This document shows positions 40,308-54,200 of a stretch of 64,000 bases of DNA, one piece after another. The position numbers and the translations under genes are program-made. Numbering within the stretch: position 1 is the stretch's first letter; each line of letters starts with the position of its first letter. The DNA comes from Trichoplax sp. H2 (lineage: Eukaryota): assembly GCA_003344405.1 (NCBI GenBank), contig NOWV01000131.1, positions 62,001-126,000 on the forward strand, in the 5' to 3' direction. The notes beneath the pieces are model-generated. The model saw only the letters and a program-made list of their open reading frames with translations, was not told the origin of the DNA and did not search any database.

Positions 40308-40778
40308 TATAATTGATTACAACGCGTATAATAAAAAGGACGCTAATTTGGCTGAAGGTATGGAAAATAGAGAGCAATTTAAAGTTGGCCGCTAATCAAC
40401 ATCATCAGGCACCGTTTTCTGCCGACTGTACAGTATATTAAGTAATTTTTTAAAATCAATCAATAATCTATCTTGATTCTCGTATCTGGTACTAATAGGA
40501 TCGAATTTGGTAATATAGTACAGGAACTTTTGACGACCAACACAGTTTAGTTCTAATGACTGTACTGATGATAAATGTTACTGAACAACAAGAATAATTT
40601 TGCTATAGTAATCGTTACAGTTTTTGAGCCTAATCGACCGGATTGCGTCGTTATACCAGCATAAACACAGCATGTTGTACACTACATTACTATGCAGTCG
40701 AGCTCAGTCTAAGCCTACTGTATTCCTTTTCCACAGTGATGGGAGTCATGTGACTGGAAATCCTTGATGAGTACAACT

Positions 40779-41175
40779 CAGTACAGTACAGTACAGTACA
40801 GTAGTCGATGACAATACAGTGTACAGTGTACAGTACAAGTTTTTCTACCGCGTTACCAGCGGTCTCCTTTAATGTACAGTACAGTACAGTACTGTACTGT
40901 ACTGTATAGTACTGTACTGTACAGTACAGTACAATAAAAGGATACTGGAGACAGTACGGGAGTGAGTACGGTACTGTATGCAGAAATTCTTTTTTCACAA
41001 CTGCACAGATTCTGCGCTGTAAAGTTGTCCCTTTTGGGCCACCGTACAGTACAGTACAGTATGTCATACAGTACAGTACAGTATAACTCCTCTCAGGCTC
41101 TCACGTACTGTACAGTACAATACACTCACTGTACTGTACTGTACTGTACTGTACAGTACAGTACAGTACAGTATA
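40779..41175. repeat. (CAGTA)n/(TACTG)n pentanucleotide microsatellite with orientation switches
   Basis: Runs of AGTAC-AGTAC and ACTGT-ACTGT that abut head-to-head around ACAGTACTGT palindromes. Confidence 0.9.
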
Positions 41176-41176
41176 G

Positions 41177-41715
41177 GAAAAAGAGGCAGTGGACTCGGTG
41201 GAGAGTACAGTACTGTACAGTACTCTACTTTTCTTGTACTGTAGTAGTCCCCAGAGGAAGATCACACCTGAGGTCTGTCTGTATACTGTAAAATGTGCGT
41301 AAGAAAAAGAGACAGTGGACTCGGTGGAGAGTACTCTACTTTTCTTGTAGTAGTCCCCAGAGGAAGATCATACCTGAGGTCTGTCTGTAGGTCCCTACTG
41401 TACTGTACTGTACAGTGTACAGTACTGTAAAATGTGCGGGTACAGTACAGTATACTGTAGCTCTGTACTGTACAGTACTCTACTTTTCTTGTTGCAGTCC
41501 CCAGAGGAAGATCACACCTGAGGTCTGTCTGTACAGTACTGTAAAATGTGCGGGTACAGTACAGTATACTGTAGCTCTGTACAGTATAAAAAGAAAGAAA
41601 AAGAGACAGTGGACTCGGTGGAGAGTACTCTACTTTTCTTGTAGTACTGTAGTCCCCAGACGAAGATCATACCTGAGGTCTGTCTGTAGGTCCCTACTGT
41701 ACTGTAAAATGTGCG
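41177..41715. repeat. Tandem repeat, about 4 copies of a ~120 bp unit interleaved with CAGTA runs
   Basis: AAAAGAG(A/G)CAGTGGACTCGGTGGAGAGTAC..TCTACTTTTCTTG..AGTCCCCAGA(G/C)GAAGATCA(C/T)ACCTGAGGTCTGTCTGT..ACTGTAAAATGTGCG at about 41177, 41303, 41475 (partial) and 41598. Confidence 0.9.
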
Positions 41716-41970
41716 GGTATAGCTCTGTAGTAGTGGTTCATCAAATGCAGTACACCTAGCTGTGACTAGGACTACATCGCCGCGGTTCCTAATCGTTACA
41801 AATCATCCAATTTTTTTAGCATAATCCTATGACTGCACTTTTATTGGTATAGCTCTGTAGTGGTTCATCAAATGCAGTACACCTAGTTATGACTAGGACT
41901 ACATCGCCGCGGTTCCTAATCGTTACAAATCATCCAATTTTTTAGCATAATCCTATGACTGCACTTTTAT
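41716..41970. repeat. Near-perfect tandem duplication, 2 copies of about 127 bp, upstream of LIN37
   Basis: GGTATAGCTCTGTAG...ACTACATCGCCGCGGTTCCTAATCG...GACTGCACTTTTAT at 41716-41844 and 41846-41970. Confidence 0.92.
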
Positions 41971-42468: not shown

Positions 42469-43281
42469 ATGTCTGAAAATAATAGAAGCAGATCGTCCTT
42501 ACATACGAATACCAGCAGCGCAGCCCACAATAGTTGTAATGAAGAATTGAACAATGCAAGAACAAAGTTCAACGATTTGTTACAAGATTTGGTTCGTCAT
42601 AATAAAGAAAGTGCATCGGAACAAGATTGCATAAATAGTTTACTAGAATTGCCTAATCAGCCTTTACTTCCTTCGAATTCCACTGGACCTGAGAAGCGTA
42701 GCCTAGCTCAAAGTAGATCGCCACGAAAGCGAAAAAAGAAAGATAGTGGAAACAACAGTAATGTCCATGATAACTCTAACACGATACCGAGCACACCTGA
42801 AGGTAATAAACCCCCTATACATGTTATCAAGCTATTCGATCGTAGCGTGGACTTAGCACAGTTTGACGAACGTACCTCGTTATATACACTTTGTCGGTCA
42901 TGGATGCATAATAATCCCAATGACGGTAGTGATAATGATGGATTTGCCAAATTAGATTTAGATGCAAATGAAAAAGCTAATAACGATGACACTAATGGTA
43001 GTAATCCAGCCATCGACGAATCAGGTAATGTTCATAGTTTACCAAAGCCATCTATTTTACAAAAGGAACGTTATACTGCTCTGACGCAAGCACCCAAACC
43101 GAAGCTGTGGGACACTAACCTAATCGGCAGTAATCAACAATCGATTGAAGAATTAAAGCGAGTTCATATCGCCAGATGGAAACTTATAAGAGCTAAATCA
43201 CGCGAAAGATTGAGTAGAATGCAAGAGCAATATAGCGAATCTAATCGAATTATTAATAAACTGTATCGACCAAGACATTAA
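42469..43281 (+). CDS. LIN37: LIN37 homolog (MuvB/DREAM complex subunit), 270 aa, single coding exon
   Basis: Signature HVIKLFDRSVDLAQFDERTSLYTLCRSWMHNNP, N-terminal AR..F..LL helix, basic NLS-like RKRKKK, and C-terminal H..RWK.IR...Y.ES..I motif. Confidence 0.92.
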   Translation: MSENNRSRSSLHTNTSSAAHNSCNEELNNARTKFNDLLQDLVRHNKESASEQDCINSLLELPNQPLLPSNSTGPEKRSLAQSRSPRKRKKKDSGNNSNVHDNSNTIPSTPEGNKPPIHVIKLFDRSVDLAQFDERTSLYTLCRSWMHNNPNDGSDNDGFAKLDLDANEKANNDDTNGSNPAIDESGNVHSLPKPSILQKERYTALTQAPKPKLWDTNLIGSNQQSIEELKRVHIARWKLIRAKSRERLSRMQEQYSESNRIINKLYRPRH

Positions 43282-46200
43282 CATTGTATTTATAATTCTT
43301 CGGAAGTCAACGTATACGGTACTGTACGAGTGTACGGTATACAGTAGCATATTAATGTGAATATAATTTTAATAAACCATATTTGACTCCTATTTTAAAC
43401 GAATTTGTATCATGACTCATAAAGCGTATCGGTGAATTGGTTTATTTCACCACTGTAGTGTATTAATAGTGTTTGCATTTTTTTATCGAATAATGATAAA
43501 TAGCACCCAAGAAGTTCATAATATGCTTTCGGTATTTCTGAAGGTATTATATATAATATTTCATAGGTTCAGCATAAGGATAACACGCTGTGTAATTACA
43601 ATTATATATCGTTTTTATCAATGCATTATGTATGAGCTGTATCGATATGTTTTATCTGTGCATTTTTTTTTATACTTCACAATTTATTACTGGATTTGCC
43701 CATACAGATATGGGCTATACGGCAATAATATACATTATATAATGTTCTCTACATATTTCATTATCATAAGTTTTTAGTATGTAAAAAAGTGGGCAGAGCT
43801 ATAGCCACTTACAGTATATTGCACTCGGTGATTCCACTGTATTCTACAAAATCTGGAAGACATTAGCTATTATGCATTTGGTTCTTTAAATTCTTTACTA
43901 ATTTCGTTACTTCTAGGACGTTAATGCAGTTACACGAATTGTATTTTGCCATATGACCACTTTTACATGTACTGAGTGGACAAACTTGCTGCTATATGAC
44001 ATCTATTCCGTTGATATCGTTATATTTGAGAAAAGAATTCGTATAGCTTGGTAACATTTTTATATAAATGAATGCAATAGCGATGCTCTTCTAAAATTCT
44101 TAAATATATTAATCAATCCATTTTGTCTATAATTTTCCTTGTAGAGTTATGCAGCATAAATATGTCAATGCATAGAATGATACTGTATTGTATATCTTAA
44201 TGCTAATAAGCGAATGTATCGAAGATTTGTTATCCTGGTAATAAAAATATCAGTTTATCGTAAAATTTGAACGAGTTCTATTGGTATTTATTTATAAGTG
44301 TAGTGTGGCTTATATTAATTGTTCCGATGTACAAACTCGGTGTGATCTACAATTACTCTGCCGTAAACTGATCACACTCAATGTGGATACTATGTAGCGA
44401 TTAATGGATTATTTGCAGGTTGGATATTTTAGGAGTTTCGATTACTGTATAAAATGTTGGTTTTTGACCTTTTCTAAAAACGTGCTTTGGGAAATCACGG
44501 TTATCTTTACCATTTTTTAGAATTGATATTAATTTATAACTTTATCGTCATTCATAAATAGAATTGAATGCGTTTTATATGTCAATGCTACTTGATTGTA
44601 GCAGTAATAGGTAAAGGAAATTACTATTTTGATAACAACTATCAGAACGTTCAGCATAAATCATTCTTTCTGCCGTTTTATGGTTTACCATAACGTATGC
44701 ACGGATGCAGTCTAGAATCAAATTCATTGGATGACATGGACTTAATTTCATCCTGATCTATAGTAATAAAAGTCTTAATGCTATCCTATAGCGAATCTAA
44801 ATTGCATCATTGTAATCACTCTACGGTATAAATACTAACAAATGCTTTTGCAGAATTCGTGGTCTGTCGCCAATGTAACTACGCGTATAATGATTATAGT
44901 AAGATTTTTGGTCTATTTCCATTATAATACTGCATCGCGCCGAAGAATTGATTGATTGATATCCATCTTCAAAGGTGTAGATATTTTATTACAGATTTAT
45001 GATAATTCATATCAGAAAATTCAAGATGAATCATGATTTATTAACTCAGGACATGAACTACTAGATGTAATTTAGTAGTCTGCGGTCAGGAGCATCACAG
45101 CCTCGGTAAATTCCTGTCGAATACTGATGAATTACGCGTATAATAATAAGCTAATCATGCACTACGCAGCCTGACAGTGCCATTAAATCATTTTATATCT
45201 ACCGTGTACAGATTTAGCAATCTTAAGTTAGAAAATAGTGCTAGCTTCCCGTTCATCGTGAACCAGTCTGGACAGCCAGCCAACTATATACTAGGAAATA
45301 GGAGAATTGAACCACTATACGGTACTACAGCCTTTACGATTGCAAAAGCATCAATGTCTCCTCATCAAGTTTTCAACATAGATAATTGTGAAATAGATAT
45401 ACTAGTATTGGATAAATATCATTCTTGATGATACTTTGCACTTCATGCACCATGCTACTACATACAGTAGGCCACATAGCTATAGCAATTATATAATTAT
45501 TGCTAGCAAACCTGTTACCTAGTTAATAGAGACCTTGTCTGTAATGGAATCTTTAATCCTACCATGCTACTATTAGTGCTACTGTACTGTATGACTGGCT
45601 CGAGAAATGCTGCTTTATGGTGGGCGTACCGTAGCACAGTACAGTACTGTACTACAGTAGTAAGCACTGCATCTCGTTACATACTGTACTGTACAGTACT
45701 GTAAGTACTGTACACTCTACACGTTAGTCATTAGATTTTTATTTTTTAAATTTTTGCGCGTAAAAATCATTACTGTATCTGTATCGTACAGTACTGTAAT
45801 CATTGACGCTATTACTACTGCACACTGACGCTCAGTACACTGCTGCACACTGTACAGTACAGTACAAAATGGTAGAAGTGTACAGTACAGTGTACTGTAC
45901 AGTACTGTACTGTAAGTTATTGTAATACTGTACAGTACAGTACAGTACAGTAAGTTACACTCATACTGTACTGTATGTTTGGCCAGCTGGCAAGAAGGTG
46001 GCTGGCTGTTACTTAGATTTAAAGCAACGAAAAGTTGGTCAAACTTTGCGTACCTACAACCGCTACAAGTGCATGTATTTTAAACTGAATACAGTATAGA
46101 GCTCTAAAATCCCAGATAAAACATACTGTAGATGACATTCTGACAATGATATAGTTACTTATATTCTGCACATCAATTATATTATTCCTTTCTTCAATGG

Positions 46201-46328
46201 GATCCAATTTGCAAATTGTAAATTACACCCAGAGTATAATAATAATAATAAAAATACAATACTCGTACACTCTTTTATCGATACTGTCAAACTAAAACAA
46301 CTGGGTTAGCAATTCTAGTTCACTGTCA

Positions 46329-47120
46329 ATGAAGCTACCTTCGCTGAATACACGTTCCGTGGATTCTAAGGACAACCAAGGCGCTCCGGTAAAATTGATC
46401 AGCTTACGATCGGTAGGAGTTGGCTCATTAGTAGGCTTTTGTACATTTCCTGCAACACTAGGAACTTTGCAAATAGTTCTGTTCAGCCCATTAAGATTAT
46501 CATGCTCAATTCCAGTGGTATCATCTGTTTTTGGCACACTAGCTGTTGCCACTTCGGTTACAGTTGCGTCAATCGCCTCTATATCTGCTTCATTATTTTA
46601 TCAACGACTGGAAAACTCCCTAGCAACAAAGAAAGATACCAGAAAAGAAATTAGTTTACGCTACTCATTTTCTCCCGTTGATTTAGGGTTCTATACTGTA
46701 GCAGCTGGCATTACTTTTAAAATTGCTGGGGGTCGGTTCAAATCTGTATTACCAAGTAGCTTTTTCAAAGCAGGAGCTTTTGCACATTCTTGTATACCTG
46801 CCAAGGGACAGATGTATGCCACAAAGAAAGAAAAATGGTTACTTACCTCGCTCGGGCGAAAATACGGATGCCATACCTGTGGAAGTAGAAGAAGTAAATT
46901 CTATTTTGGAGATCATATTCCTCCGAATACACTACTAAGGAAGGGAGAGCAACAAGTATTTTATCCTCAATGTAATCAATGTTCCAGTTTACAAGGTGGA
47001 TTACTTTCAGGAAATAAAAGTAACTTCAAATTAAAAACGCATGCCTTATCGTTAAGGCTATATCACTTGTATTTACCATTTCCATTTATTTTAATGGCTA
47101 TTCGTCAATTTGCTATATAG
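46329..47120 (+). CDS. Uncharacterised 263-aa protein: N-terminal hydrophobic (putative TM) segments plus C-terminal HNH-like Zn-binding domain; intronless
   Basis: Long ORF in AT-rich DNA. Hydrophobic stretches lie at about aa 25-90 and 120-135. C-terminal motif GAFAHSCIPAKG...YGCHTCG..x9..DHIPP..x13..YPQCNQCSSLQGG. Confidence 0.8.
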   Translation: MKLPSLNTRSVDSKDNQGAPVKLISLRSVGVGSLVGFCTFPATLGTLQIVLFSPLRLSCSIPVVSSVFGTLAVATSVTVASIASISASLFYQRLENSLATKKDTRKEISLRYSFSPVDLGFYTVAAGITFKIAGGRFKSVLPSSFFKAGAFAHSCIPAKGQMYATKKEKWLLTSLGRKYGCHTCGSRRSKFYFGDHIPPNTLLRKGEQQVFYPQCNQCSSLQGGLLSGNKSNFKLKTHALSLRLYHLYLPFPFILMAIRQFAI

Positions 47121-50100
47121 ACAGCATTGATATGTACCAATGTACGCGCATGTATAATATATTATACTGTATATATATAATAACTTAACGCAATCATTGT
47201 ATATTATTATTATAAATATAATTTGATCGGAATACTATAGAAATGTGTCTAAAAGTTTATCATTTTTACTACAGATACTGGACAATAGTCAGATAAAGCG
47301 TGTACAGTATAATTTGACTGTTTACTTCAATTAAATTGTCCAGTATCACAGTACAGTACAGTATTTCAGAAATAGGATTGGCGATGGCATACTGTATGTA
47401 ATCAGGAATGTCACAGTTCACCTCGATGCTCCAAAACTGTCGATATAAGATTTAATATACTGTAAATGTTTCTCCATTAACAGACATAGTATATGTCGAA
47501 GTTTACTTGATATGAAACTAACGTTGGTACAAATATAACGAATTTATAGAAATGACCAACTTCAATTACTGCTATTGGAGGGTGATATTGAATAGAGTAT
47601 CTATGAAAAGGAAAGCAAATTCAATAAATCGTTGTACATTTAGAACATGGATCAAAAAGTAGTTGTTAATTTGCGACGAGACTTTGAATCGTTGTGGTAA
47701 ATGTATCATGACTGAACTTTAAGTTAGCAGGTAGTGATTCAGGAAAATGATAAATTTGGATTAAGGTTCAGAATACAAGAATAAATTAATTTTTAAAATT
47801 ATAACCGTGCTATTCGTCTCAGACAGTTAACTTTGTAATAAATTTATTGCATTATTATGGATGATAATTCTATCTAATGGTACAACTTCGATTGGACTTT
47901 AGAATGTAACATCTACATAATAATTCAGCAAAGATTTCAACCCTGATTACGGTGTAGTGCATTATAAAACGCATATGATGTTCATATGCTTTACGCTGGT
48001 ATTGTACAGATGTAAAATTTTTAAAGTAGCGAGCATCGCATAGTGCGAAAAATTTTATTTCATGTTGTTATTATAACTAGGGTTTGTAGGGTGTGTCTCT
48101 TTACTTACAGGTTGATGTTTTGATAAAATACGCGTACATTATTTTTTCAACGCATATTCATGATATCTATCGTAACTACACAATTTATGATGCCATTATC
48201 CATTAAAATTACCTCATTTTACCATTATATGATGCTATTCTATAACCGCATTTTATCATCGCAATTGGAAACGCTTATACTCCTTTACATCATGCATATT
48301 CATACATGGGCGTTATTGAATATAAAATAATTTTACAAATTGCTAGAATGCACCAAAAGATGTTTTATTTTATTGATAAAGTTCTTCACAAGAATTCTAG
48401 CTTAATTAATAGAACATACAGTATATACGCGTATACAGTACTTAAAATTTTTAAATCTTGGCATGATATCAACGCGCATTCAACATTTCTTAAATTAGGC
48501 AATGGCAAGGCGTTAAAAAAGTGAAATTTTAGTCGAAATTATTTGGTTTAAGTGTATTTTTCTAATTTTACAATTTATATAATATAATAAATCTTAATAC
48601 TATCATTTTTATGAGGGCAACGCTTCTGAAGCTCTAGCCAATTACTGTTGTAAATCCCATTTCATCACGTAAAGTTTTTCTACAGTATTATAAAAATCAT
48701 ATATCTACAGAGCATCATGAAAGAAGATATCACGTAATTTTATGTTAGTTACGATAGCTACGATAGTAACTAACATCGCAAAAAGTTTGAAGTCATTTTT
48801 TAATCTTACGATAGGAAAAAAAAGTTTCGGTCGAATTTGATAAGAAGGGCATCGTGGTAGAATCACTTTATCAGGGACTACTCGCTGGAGCTATCATTAC
48901 CAAAATATTCCGTGATTGGAATATACTAATTGATTTATTTATTTTTACTTTATTTTATTATTCTATGCGGGAATACCACCGGCGTTGTTGGTAGTATCCG
49001 TTCACTAACCATCACAAACCCTAATGAAGGTAAAAAGATAAAAAATATCAATATGTTTTAATATACTCGTACTTAAAAATAGCAATACAAGCTCGGACAA
49101 GATACCCAATTTTGAATATAGACATTGATAATAATAAAATTGATAGAATTTAATAACCAAGTATTGAAAGTAAGCTCTATCGATTGAATGACTATTCTAC
49201 TGTCTAATGTCACTGTATACGCGTACTGACGTTTGCGTATATACAGTACAGCAGTATATGACTAGCGTCCCAATGCAACAAGTGAAGTCAAGGCACAGTC
49301 ACTGCAGCACGATTCAATCACGCACTGACGCATTGATGTCGTGGTGATTCTTTTGTTGCAGCGGCATGACAAAGAGGTTAAGTAGTGCATTAATTAAAGC
49401 GATGACAGAGTGGGTATGTAACCGCAGTATGGTATGGTAGAACTATGCTGTACCGGTGTATTTGAACAGTAGACTACACTTATTGTAGTGTTTTGAACAA
49501 CAGCCCACACATTGTAATGTACATTATACAGAATGAAGAGATAATTAGGTTTACACACCAAAAAATAAAATTTTCTTACGTAATTTTTCCTCACCAATTC
49601 TACTGTATAAATGATGCAAGGCTTTTTAAGCTCATGCTTTGCGAGATTGATTAACTTTCTATTGCAATTTACAGTCCAATTTATTAGAATGCATTTATCT
49701 GTATACTATACTGTATTCGTAAAACACTATCAAGGAGGACGCACTTGAGCTGCTATCCGTACAGTATACAGTACTCTACTGTACAGTGTACAGTGTACAG
49801 TAGATCGCTTAGAAAATAAATGGAACTTTTATGATTCCGAAATCGGCTTGAACCAATTCTTGTTTGTACTTTTTAAAATATTAGATCCGCTCTAAATTGA
49901 TCTAGGTAAAGTCAAATTCGTGATTTTTGTTCTTATTGTACTACGTAAACTGTTGCGGCAGTAACTTGTACTGTATAAGTGACATAGGTGCTGTACACAG
50001 ACTAAACAGTATGTACTAGGCAACGTGTGCAGATGGATTTTGAAACTTCACTTTACGTGAAAGTCAAGTGTTGTGGACTTGATGGGCACTTCAGGTGAAG

Positions 50101-51262: not shown

Positions 51263-54200
51263 GGTTTCTCTTGATGCGATCTCAAGATGAATCAAAATTG
51301 TGATCCTTTATAAAGCACTGCGCTTGCCGGTACATCAACGTTTCAGAAAGAAGTAACAATGTGCACTTTGATAGCAGAAAAACAATCAAAAATGATTTGT
51401 CTTGCTTTTACCGCATTGCCAAGTAAGATATAGACACACTGTACAGTAGCAGAGTATGCTTGAACCCTAAGGGCTTGTCATGGGCTGTACCCATTCAAAG
51501 CTGATGAAACTGCTAACGCAATGCATTGTAAAATTGCGTAGTCTACAGTCTACTGTACTGTACTGTACAGTACAGTACAGTAAAATGACGCGGTAAAATG
51601 CAAAGGGTACAGTACTGTCAGTACAGTACAGTATTCAGTACTGTACTGTACTGCACAGTAGTTCTGACTACTACTCGGCCAACCGGCTTAACCAGTTATT
51701 ATCATGCTGAGATATATAATGTAATCATATAAATAAGAAGATAACCACTTTTAGACCCGAAGTGAACCGATTCACAGAGAAATCAGAGGATTAATAATAT
51801 AATTATTATAATTGTTTACATTATCGTCTCTATGGACGGAATTGAATATTTGGGCAGTTATTATTTTTATTCTTGCCCTTATGGGATATGCAATGCAATA
51901 CTGTATTTAGATGCATACTGTACTATAGAAAGTACTATAGTCGAGTAAATTGAAAACAATTTCTAATTTCAAAATACTGTATGCTTGTTGCTTATTACTC
52001 TCCATTTGGATTACATCAATCGATAATTATAATGATAAGTTATGTGGATCTACAAGGCTGTAACTCAGATTTACCATTACTTCAAGTATAACCCTGATAT
52101 TTCCTTTTGAAGATTGATATAATTAGTCGAATTTCCAAGATTCCCATCGGACGTAAACTCTGTATGTTTCCCATTTCTTTTATAGGGCTTGATCCGCCCC
52201 GTAATAAATACAAATACAGTATAATATATATCGACAGCAATGATTCCGGGTAATATATACTAAAGTGGTAATATCGACATATTCATGGGTGATTTATCAG
52301 TCCTTGGCAGTCGCATAACCTCATTTGAGTTGTAACATTTTTCAAACGGCATAATGTCAGAAGCGGCTTGCTTAAACGTTCAAACCTTCATCATAGGGGG
52401 CTTGTATCTCTTTCTCAATCTTATGTTGGCGGAACTTATTCACTGTCAATACTTCTCTGCGGTAGTCAAGAGGTACGGTACTTTTTCAAAGAAATCGTTA
52501 TATCGACGTAATTGCGGTCTAAGCCGCATTTAGATTCTAGTGCTACTCTACTATTCAATGTAAAATTGGCGTACTAGCCTACTTTTTACATGTACCTACA
52601 TTGTATTCACTTTTGATGATATATAATACAAGCGTGAATCAATGATGGTCATTATCATACCATTTAATTAGTTGTTTATGAATAATAAGAGAGCATGCAT
52701 CATCGCTATGACGTAAATAACATTTCTAATTAAATGAAATTGGTGTAGATCAAATAAATATCGCAAGTTGAATCGGTAATGATGGCTAAATGTTTATTCC
52801 TAGTTGTAGTCAACAAAGGAAGAATATACATATACGTGATACCATGATAGTACAGTATACCATACATTAAACGTTGTACAATGGTAAAGTAGACTGTGTG
52901 GATCAGGTCAAATCCAAAATTGATAACAACTACAGTATCAGTATATTGGCCATTTGGCGTCCACTAAAATGATTCAGTACTATACTAAAAGTTATAATGA
53001 AAACATTAAACAAACAAAACAGACAATAGTATTAATTGTTTTCCTATTCTACTTGAAGCCGGATCTATTAAAGTTTGCAGTAATTACCCTAGTTTTCTCA
53101 GAAATTATCTTCTATACTGTAACCAGCAGATAATAAACGTTTGAGTATACCAAAACTACATCAGTTATTATTTAGAGATTTTTTCATGTATTACGGCATG
53201 ATTTTATAAACTGGGTAGTACTATAGATATAAATTGACCGTTAAAATTTAGTGTGTCTATAAGCTTGGAAGAAGGTATTCTAGCATTAGATCGATTGACT
53301 TACATATGAGAAAATATCGAATTCATGCTATTTACTGTATACTACTGTATACGCGTATACACGAGTAAATATTACGAAAGCCAATGGACTTGTAGCAAAG
53401 TACAGTAGTGATTTCTAGTGATCCAATTTATACGTTGAACTTTGACATAGGCAGTAAAGTTGGCCATTCAGATAATACCCCTAAAGGCACTACGCTATCA
53501 TTAATCACCTTACAGATAATACTAATAATATAATTGAACGTTTATAGAGCAATTGTTCGTATACAAGCAACTCTTTCGAAATGATAAATTAACGAAGAAT
53601 CGATTAAAGAACCGTTAAACCAAATCCGGTTTGTGACCGGCATCCATTATACATGTCCGAAAGTTAATTAGCATCTGGGTAAATGTAATCGTCATATCAA
53701 ATATTGTTCTTTTAATGTCCAATGTTACTGGCTACCATCAATCCCTTTAGTGGCGTAAGTTTAATGTGGTTTTTAATCGAAGAAAACGATATTAGTAGGC
53801 AAGGAAAGTGAGTTCTACATAAAAATTTTGAATTAAAGATGTTGATATGATAACATTCACTATAAGTATGCTAGTATAAAGGCATTTGTATCGTTAATGA
53901 ATGAAGAAGTTCATCTATTATTGATTATCATGATTATTGTAGTCTTTCTGCTGTACTGTATTCTACAGTAACTGAATAATGAATGGCCCAATATTTATTT
54001 AACTTGAATTCAAAAGCATCGTATTACGACAAATTTTTAGACGGCGCCAATAACTGATGTTCCGCCTTCGGAGTAACAAAATATTATATTAGTATCGTAT
54101 CCTTAATATTCCTTATGTAAGCAAAATGTACTTGCATTATAACGCTATTCATTTTAGCCATATGCTAATCAATAATAAAAAATAATTAGGAAGTTTAGTT

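Follow-up and report, generated by a model that had tools for sequence, protein, structure and literature searches.

A predicted membrane protein of Trichoplax sp. H2 with a putative NGO1392-like HNH/EndoVII nuclease domain

Introduction

The NGO1392-like domain is found as the toxic C-terminal tip of Rhs- and MafB-type polymorphic toxins of bacteria, and because the bacterial-toxin origin of its family was already published in 2011–2012, the present analysis adds little on that point. Here we describe an open reading frame (ORF) from the placozoan Trichoplax sp. H2 that very probably encodes a eukaryotic member of this family. It lies on the forward strand of a 64,000-nucleotide stretch of DNA (GenBank assembly GCA_003344405.1, contig NOWV01000131.1, positions 62,001 to 126,000), which we call the window and to whose first letter all positions refer.

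The clade is listed in Table 2 of Zhang et al. 2012 (PMC3482391) as NGO1392-like/Tox-SuFu-Nuc, with an HNH/EndoVII fold and the motifs CxxC, DH, CXXC, and Q. Its hosts there are many bacterial phyla and, among eukaryotes, apicomplexa, choanoflagellida, metazoa, stramenopiles, and viridiplantae, and mycobacteriophage members are also listed; the immunity proteins given by the same paper are Imm-SuFu, Imm13, Imm21, Imm33, and Imm38, and the associated domains are HINT and RHS. Transfer to eukaryotes was noted in that paper and by Zhang, Iyer, and Aravind 2011 (PMC3113570), and the accessible text of both suggests a DNA-repair role for the eukaryotic branch, the earlier of the two regarding a toxin role in eukaryotes as unlikely given the conservation. 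We found no mention of membrane helices or of a C-terminal tail of the eukaryotic branch in the accessible text of either paper, the supplements of which may show the architecture. In the corresponding text of Jamet et al. 2015 (PMC4287609) NGO1392 is cited only for a database domain match, and in that of the 2017 classification of His-Me finger nucleases (PMC5714182) no group fitting the family was found. Neither experimental work on any family member nor the Trichoplax adhaerens protein TRIADDRAFT_61091 was found in the literature.

DFF40/CAD (Tox-HNH-CIDE) and the teneurin Tox-GHH domain are, according to the accessible text of PMC3417536, eukaryotic recruitments of HNH/EndoVII nucleases from bacterial polymorphic toxins, and the teneurins have lost the active site, whereas the Trichoplax-type family keeps the signature residues. 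Both are restricted to metazoans, whereas the Trichoplax-type family is far wider in eukaryotes, and DFF40 is soluble and caspase-activated, whereas the Trichoplax-type family is predicted to be membrane-anchored. In T4 EndoVII (1e7d, 2qnf; PF02945), a soluble dimeric junction resolvase, two zinc-holding CxxC pairs flank the DH strand of a beta-beta-alpha core, an arrangement that the Trichoplax domain is predicted to share; unlike it, the Trichoplax protein has predicted membrane segments and a conserved N-terminal element, PSxxxxxGAFxxxxxPA. The classical HNH enzymes (Gme HNH 4h9d, McrA 6ghc, Cas9; PF01844) share the order CxxC-DH-CxxC.

Results

The protein belongs to a widespread and strongly conserved eukaryotic family

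A sequence-only reading of the window had proposed a single-exon ORF of 263 amino acids (aa), and both the ORF list, with one ATG-to-stop frame, and a word-index protein search, in which TRIADDRAFT_61091 was 99% identical over 100% of the length, bear this out; an identical protein sequence is also recorded from a second contig. The window is AT-rich throughout (G+C 0.30–0.41, with 0.34 around the ORF as in the rest), and therefore we do not regard a 263-codon open frame as due to chance. All of the strings quoted from the protein in that reading (GAFAHSCIPAKG, YATKKEK, YGCHTCG, DHIPP, and YPQCNQCSSLQGG), as well as its hydrophobic C-terminal tail, are present. Two of the spacings given there needed correction, because the gap from AKG to YAT is 2 residues (QM) and not 1, and that from DHIPP to YPQC is 12 and not 13; the 9 residues between GCHTCG and DH had been counted correctly.

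The word-index search gave 66 relatives among 1187 candidates, and an exhaustive search of cluster representatives gave 1251 at E ≤ 0.001, 342 at 1e-10, and 42 at 1e-30. The named animal members come from corals, Nematostella, the sponge Amphimedon, sea stars, a brittle star, sea urchins, and amphioxus, and the named members from other eukaryotes come from oomycetes (Globisporangium, Peronosclerospora), diatoms (Thalassiosira, Cyclotella), three species of Theileria, and the choanoflagellate Salpingoeca helianthica (P0043), a distribution that agrees with the eukaryotic range listed for the NGO1392-like clade in the published table. No vertebrate, insect, nematode, or fungus was among the named matches of the word-index protein and profile word searches, and the profile word search with an alignment of 24 sequences returned 49 proteins and no new named groups. 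The whole-protein look-alikes in an atlas search, which serve as leads only, were unnamed eukaryotic clusters, most commonly of Cnidaria, Chlorophyta, and Bacillariophyta; the N-terminal part gave no usable match there. When longer fused forms were sought with aa 138–228 in the word index, none of the 34 candidates scored, which is weak evidence. All named relatives are annotated as hypothetical, as is to be expected of a family without a Pfam model.

Conservation was read from three alignments, namely 24 sequences across groups (A1), 81 sequences (A2), and the domain of the window with 11 bacterial tips (A4); a further one of 10 sequences (A3) served for the scan of bacterial genomes. Invariant in A1 are P142, S143, G149, F151, A158, A164, G176, G180, C181, H182, C184, and G185 on the N-terminal side and D195, H196, P198, P199, F211, Y212, P213, C215, C218, and Q222 on the C-terminal side, giving the invariant motifs GCHxCG, DHxPP, and FYPxCxxC followed by Q222. 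In A2, the Cys residues of the first pair and the D, H, and P residues are invariant, and those of the second pair are kept in at least 90% of sequences. This pattern indicates strong and deep purifying selection on the putative active site, and the CxxC, DH, CxxC, and Q signature of the NGO1392-like clade is found complete in the 24 sequences of A1 and, save for one H and one Q, in the 11 bacterial tips.

The domain model has a beta-beta-alpha-metal order

Because the long helices swamped whole-protein fold searches, in which Foldseek against the PDB gave nothing at E ≤ 0.001 and the wide VIA search gave only generic helical membrane matches (Z ≤ 5.7), the domain was modeled alone (aa 130–238, 81-row alignment). 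The model (pLDDT 89.0, pTM 0.80) consists of a helix, a strand at 64–68 ending in GDHI, a strand at 81–85 (VFYPQ), and a helix at 87–97 that starts from the second CxxC (domain numbering), and this predicted order is that of the beta-beta-alpha-metal nucleases. A structural search with VIA over 48161 representative chains returned 51 matches at Z ≥ 2, and 14 of the top 15 rows were HNH/EndoVII nucleases or proteins containing one. The best were Gme HNH (Z 4.5, rmsd 3.4, 71 residues), T4 EndoVII (Z 3.9, rmsd 3.4, 67 residues, 19% identity), McrA (Z 3.8), and GVE2 HNH (Z 3.6); Cas9 (Z 3.4), Cap5, TagI, a retron nuclease, IscB, ZRANB3 HNH, and HNH Cascade were also within the top 15, and the matched parts of Cas9, Cap5, and IscB are presumably their HNH domains. 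Low absolute Z scores are expected for a core of ∼70 residues, and we accepted the HNH/EndoVII fold of the clade for this domain model because the match list is consistent and the positions of the motifs fit. The assignment of CxxC...DH...CxxC to the HNH layout, made initially from the letters, thus agrees with the model and with its nearest structural neighbors.

The bacterial relatives are toxin tips with immunity-type neighbors

We scanned one genome per bacterial species with the most conserved peptide of the family (pattern YGCHTCGx[RK]) and alignment A3. Of the 36 pattern matches, 17 encode a relative, in bacteria of at least five phyla that include Archangium, Polyangiaceae, Streptomyces, Thermoactinomycetaceae, several Rhizobiales, a Chloroflexota bin, and Cellvibrio, with 33–48% identity over domain residues ∼15–100. 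At four of these 17 loci (L002, L004, L009, and L010) the ORF extends beyond the locus and is at least 1754 aa long, with the domain as its last ∼90 aa. The Pfam scan of the long toxin ORFs covered L002 and L004, in which RHS_repeat (E 9.1e-17 and 9e-79) and a PT-HINT pretoxin domain (E 3.7e-15 and 7.2e-28) directly precede the tip; L009 and L010 are known by their matching ORF length. The remaining loci have stop-to-stop frames of 66–644 aa with the domain at the end, except in L001 and the truncated L016, and two of the frames are cut by contig ends. A tblastn search of plasmids, which is independent of the peptide pattern, gave seven records, among them a very large Priestia protein and a Burkholderia protein annotated as "RHS repeat-associated core domain" that is followed by an annotated Imm21 gene (L018). 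The same search of phage records gave no match at E ≤ 0.01, a result to be read with the proviso that the Trichoplax query may not reach the published mycobacteriophage members.

In L001 (Archangium), Imm21 (E 8.4e-24) follows the toxin domain within one stop-to-stop frame (1780–2571), which could represent a fused toxin-immunity frame, an internal start, or a sequencing error. DUF7003 lies directly downstream of the tip in L004 (5342–6013) and L011 (613–1569; E 6e-47 and 8e-44; Thermoactinomycetaceae and "Bacterium HR15"), and its position suggests an immunity function against nucleases of this clade, although it is not in the immunity table of PMC3482391 as accessible. SUFU is the second gene downstream of the tip in L004 (E 1.4e-8). 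Downstream ORFs without a Pfam family are mostly ∼120 aa long, and those checked in Rhizobiales overlap the toxin stop codon, the usual place of an immunity gene. As in the published clade, then, the bacterial members are carried by Rhs/HINT toxins and accompanied by Imm-SuFu or Imm21, and the likeness to bacterial Rhs and polymorphic-toxin tips that the sequence-only reading had proposed has held up on carriers, identity, and Imm21, SUFU, and DUF7003 neighbors alike.

In A4, GCHTCG, D, and P..C..C are invariant, and G20, P28, Y50, H67, P70, Q93, and G94 (domain numbering) are nearly so. The element before the zinc site reads PGPYAxESxPA in bacteria and PGAFAxxxIPA in eukaryotes, and the shared residues therefore extend the homology to this element as well. 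D is present in all rows and H in 11 of 12, and Q is replaced in one bacterial tip: the tip of L012 (Nitratireductor arenosus) has DY instead of the catalytic DH, and that of L017 (Hansschlegelia) has S for the conserved Q and no Ser after the second CxxC. From their sequences, both may be inactivated or divergent toxin cassettes.

The domain is joined to a predicted membrane module

The two to three hydrophobic segments and hydrophobic tail claimed initially were recovered in a crude Kyte-Doolittle profile (19-residue window), with segments at ∼28–53 and ∼57–91 (maximum 1.83), a weaker one at ∼116–134 (about 1.0), and the tail at ∼239–258 (1.41). In the full-length model (pLDDT 86.9, pTM 0.83), helices 26–52 and 62–98 have pLDDT ≥ 92 and hydropathy maxima of 1.7–1.8; whether the third helix (aa 116–132) inserts into the membrane is uncertain. 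The hydrophobic N-terminal part is rich in small residues, and G36, F40, Q48, and G69 are kept in at least 90% of the 24 sequences of A1. The C-terminal extension is absent from the bacterial tips, most of which end ∼8–16 residues after QGG and one of which has a longer tail. Charges are +5/−2 in the N terminus, +1 in the short loop between helices 1 and 2, +6/−3 in the loop after helix 2, and +18/−3 in the domain. Under the positive-inside rule, such a distribution would point to a hairpin of helices whose nuclease domain faces the cytosol, the nucleoplasm, or the matrix. The score of a homodimer prediction was 0.00, the mark being 0.32, which speaks neither for nor against a dimer. Four sponge-type relatives (P0009, P0011, P0014, and P0025) carry an extra C-terminal extension of ∼60–120 aa that ends in another hydrophobic segment and is absent from the Trichoplax protein.

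The eukaryotic branch is old

A quick maximum-likelihood tree was built from 177 rows and 99 columns, after slices below 85 aa had been dropped from 219 and the eukaryote-type rows had been thinned at 70% identity. A branch with SH-aLRT 93 separates 14 bacterial loci and the metagenome proteins P0202 and P0210, the latter with a YD-shell Pfam match, from the 161 other rows; in this unrooted tree the eukaryote-type rows thus form one group apart from the bacterial ones. The tree, with a bacterial sample picked by the YGCHTCGx[RK] pattern, fits a single transfer and gives no direction, which we take to be from bacteria to eukaryotes because of the literature and the wide spread of bacterial carriers.

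A profile of the N-terminal part from 30 animal-type members was tested on 38 other eukaryote-type N termini and on 76 reversed or shuffled controls; 31 of the 38 scored higher than the best control (8.9 bits), the highest reaching 55 bits. These profile scores indicate that the membrane module is old within the family, a statement that we confine to the members so detected. Because the architecture is widely shared, the eukaryotic rows form one group, and the N-terminal profile recognizes distant members, we regard the family as old and widely inherited in eukaryotes. The proposal that an animal genome captured a toxin-type nuclease and fused it to a membrane anchor therefore does not stand, because the architecture also occurs in a choanoflagellate, oomycetes, diatoms, and Theileria. 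The sequence-only reading had named an ordinary pan-eukaryotic zinc-finger family as a refuting outcome; the family is indeed pan-eukaryotic, but its domain is of the HNH type and not an ordinary zinc finger.

Discussion

Overall, we favor, with reasonable confidence, the reading that this ORF encodes a domesticated, probably active, membrane-tethered, zinc-stabilized nuclease. Within this reading, membership in the NGO1392-like (Tox-SuFu-Nuc) HNH/EndoVII clade is very probable, since the motifs, fold, RHS/HINT carriers, Imm21 and SuFu neighbors, and eukaryotic range all agree with it, and we lean toward a domain that is both active as a nuclease and tethered to a membrane. The gene itself, its homology and distribution, the toxin setting of the bacterial relatives, and the modeled fold are shown by the results above, whereas activity, substrate, membrane, and topology are inferred. 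The domain would have been fused a single time, well before the origin of animals, to two hydrophobic helices on its N-terminal side and to a hydrophobic tail on its C-terminal side, and this architecture would have been inherited since, with many losses. C181, C184, C215, and C218 would bind a structural zinc ion, with H196, where the first strand ends, as the general base, and D195 together with S219/Q222 on the helix would position a catalytic divalent metal. Nucleic acid would be bound by the very basic domain (18 K/R versus 3 D/E), and the helical hairpin and tail would hold the enzyme on the surface of an internal membrane, most likely on its cytosolic, nucleoplasmic, or matrix side.

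Several observations weigh against this reading. Membership in the clade is drawn from motifs, contexts, and the published range. No Pfam or NCBIfam model matches the Trichoplax protein, even at E ≤ 10; none of the 81 relatives matches an HNH model or is significant in Pfam (one has a weak NinG match, E 0.0067); and 10 bacterial tips have no Pfam match, the Endonuclease_7 model (PF02945) at E 8 on one of them being the sole trace of T4 EndoVII in the family at the sequence level. No solved structure matches by sequence; the protein (E 0.9) and the 81-sequence profile (E 8.8) gave only chance matches to membrane proteins. The structural Z scores do not exceed 4.5, and a Z under 8 can mean merely a common arrangement; Foldseek with the domain gave no match at E ≤ 0.001, placing T4 EndoVII at rank 15 with the best TM of the list, 0.44. 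S219 and Q222 presumably stand where classical HNH enzymes have the final His/Asn, and a Ser sits at the position of the metal-binding Asn of T4 EndoVII, which weakens the case for catalysis. The membrane segments come from crude hydropathy and a predicted model. The tree is poorly resolved over its 99 columns, in addition to being unrooted and built on pattern-picked bacteria, and the N-terminal profile is marginal for the named oomycetes and one diatom (12.5, 11.9, and 10.4 bits), below the control for the other diatom (7.9 bits), and does not detect the three Theileria proteins (2–4 bits versus the control at 8.9); pairwise BLASTP of aa 1–135 against one oomycete and one diatom relative was likewise not significant. 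Among 12 scanned ORFs downstream of bacterial tips, nine have no Pfam family and two are DUF7003, which is not a listed immunity family. The three variants listed inside the ORF (F68S, A239S, and A262V) all change amino acids, all outside the catalytic motifs, and their count is too small to read selection. Finally, RNA support consists of contigs of depth 2.8–4.4 in one run on record as RNA, the others being guessed to be RNA.

Bacterial contamination or an assembly artefact can be excluded: the nuclease domain does have bacterial relatives, but the G+C content around the ORF is that of the window, the gene 3 kb upstream, on the same strand and contig, is LIN37, a host-type repeat separates the two, the sequence stretch is present in runs of eight studies, and the closest relatives are proteins of animals, many of which carry the family. 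The earlier argument against contamination was therefore sound. Placozoans carry bacterial endosymbionts, the relatives in bacteria are genuine toxin tips accompanied by immunity genes, and the catalytic signature is intact in A1, all of which could point, along the lines of the sequence-only reading, to a recently acquired toxin-type nuclease serving Trichoplax as a toxin or as an effector of defense or cell death. We consider this unlikely, because animals, a choanoflagellate, stramenopiles, and Theileria share one architecture and form one group apart from bacteria. Further, the Trichoplax protein is 38–45% identical to cnidarian and sponge proteins over >80% of its length, and therefore the family has changed slowly, unlike conflict proteins; the conservation argument is also made in the accessible text of Zhang et al. 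2011 (PMC3113570). A defense or cell-death role may nevertheless belong to the old family.

EndoVII-like enzymes act on branched DNA and the domain is basic, and a soluble nuclear DNA-repair nuclease would thus agree with the role suggested in the accessible text of PMC3113570 and PMC3482391. The two long hydrophobic helices and the hydrophobic tail are conserved in the family and modeled with high confidence, however, and the lack of named vertebrate, insect, nematode, and fungal matches would be odd for a core repair enzyme, so that we give a soluble repair nuclease little weight. The predicted, conserved membrane anchoring sits poorly with the published repair suggestion, whereas both readings would be satisfied by a repair enzyme of the inner nuclear membrane or of an organelle. 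It is also quite improbable that catalysis was lost and that the domain is now a zinc-stabilized binding or structural module of a membrane protein. The Ser in place of the usual Asn/His metal ligand of the helix and the DY of L012 would speak for such a module, as would the finding of no activity measurements on family members in the literature. However, D195, H196, and Q222 are invariant in 24 diverse eukaryotes, as are D and H in 81 sequences, and most of the 11 aligned bacterial tips keep D, H, and Q, whereas the teneurins, which provide the precedent for an inert Tox-GHH module, lost the active-site residues (PMC3417536, accessible text).

A more far-reaching version of the membrane-tethered nuclease, which we put forward tentatively and with some doubt, is that the eukaryotic branch is an unrecognized class of integral-membrane nucleases, present early in eukaryote evolution and since lost from the vertebrate, insect, nematode, and fungal lineages. 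In such a class the module, with FPxxLGxxQ in helix 1, small-xxx-small repeats in helix 2, and the hydrophobic tail, would work together with an active catalytic domain held at the membrane surface. The substrate might be DNA or RNA arriving at the face of an organelle, the nuclear envelope, or an endomembrane, and the role organelle-genome turnover or clearance of foreign nucleic acid; if so, the published DNA-repair suggestion would be incomplete. Otherwise, the Trichoplax protein is unremarkable within an HNH family that is already published, derives from toxins, and is spread across eukaryotes. It provides a clean case of a nuclease of interbacterial warfare that was domesticated very early by eukaryotes and kept almost unchanged in many lineages, early-branching animals included, and the remaining interest lies in the role that such a conserved HNH nuclease, probably tethered to a membrane, plays in cnidarians, sponges, placozoans, echinoderms, diatoms, oomycetes, and Theileria.

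Features, transcription, and genomic neighborhood

Table 1. Features of the nuclease-like gene in the window
Feature	Coordinates	Strand	Evidence
Whole ORF, 263 aa and stop, single exon	46329..47120	+	ORF list; 99% identity to annotated protein; colinear contigs
N terminus, aa 1–27, poorly conserved, low confidence	46329..46409	+	pLDDT 44–55 in first 20 residues; length and sequence vary in A1
Two long hydrophobic helices, aa ∼28–53 and ∼57–91, probable transmembrane hairpin	46410..46601	+	hydropathy, model, conservation, N-terminal profile
Third, weakly hydrophobic helix, aa 116–132, leading into catalytic domain	46674..46724	+	model; hydropathy ∼1.0
Probable NGO1392-like HNH/EndoVII-type domain, aa ∼138–228	46740..47012	+	33–48% identity to bacterial tips; model; structural matches
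First CxxC (C181, C184), putative zinc ligands, inside invariant GCHxCG	46869..46880	+	invariant in A1, A2, A4
D195-H196, putative catalytic Asp-His, end of first beta strand	46911..46916	+	invariant in A1, A2; strand 64–68 of domain model
Second CxxC (C215, C218), then S219, Q222 at helix start	46971..46994	+	C215/C218/Q222 invariant and S219 ≥90% in A1
Eukaryote-specific C-terminal extension, aa 236–263, hydrophobic tail, consensus THxxSLRLYHLxLP	47034..47117	+	A1 consensus; hydropathy 1.41

Four public runs (X1, X5, X7, and X16) were compared over 44500–49000 by means of contigs, which give no strand, ends, or expression level; X1 has a flat, DNA-like depth, X16 is the only run on record as RNA, and X5 and X7 are guessed to be RNA. 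The contigs of X16 cover 46291–46532 and 46627–46996. In X5 and X7 the depth is uneven (0 upstream of 45550, ∼10–13 over the gene, and >300 at 48400–48900), and their contigs are colinear over the ORF, one 1500-nucleotide contig of X5 spanning 46310–47809 without a gap, so that a single exon fits. Intervals such as 44500–45550 that lack contig cover in X5, X7, and X16 were given no weight. RNA-seq, which the sequence-only reading had named as a check on the gene, thus lends modest support to a transcribed, unspliced gene.

The X5 and X7 contigs run ∼690 nucleotides past the nuclease stop codon (47121–47809) through sequence with no long ORF, which would be either a long 3′ untranslated region (UTR) or an overlapping transcript. 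Farther downstream, 48336–48924 is very deep (314 in X5, 318 in X7, and 209 in X16, versus ∼10 over the nuclease gene) and probably belongs, as exon or UTR, to a highly expressed gene; a 60-aa frame at 48705–48887 (−) has no Pfam match. Upstream, LIN37 (PF15306, E 1.1e-35) occupies 42469–43278 (+) as an uninterrupted frame of 270 aa, seemingly intron-free over this interval. A block of TACTGTACAGTA-like repeats (the CAGTA cluster) lies at ∼45557–45960, between LIN37 and the nuclease gene, and further dense blocks lie at ∼40690–41800 and 51467–51732; many contigs join or break at these blocks. In the DNA-like run X1 the depth is 24251 over 45557–45960, ∼200-fold that of the flanks (∼100), and 1658–24251 across the blocks. 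Because of this excess, the TACTGTACAGTA-like sequence is taken to be a short host repeat that is dispersed genome-wide between genes.

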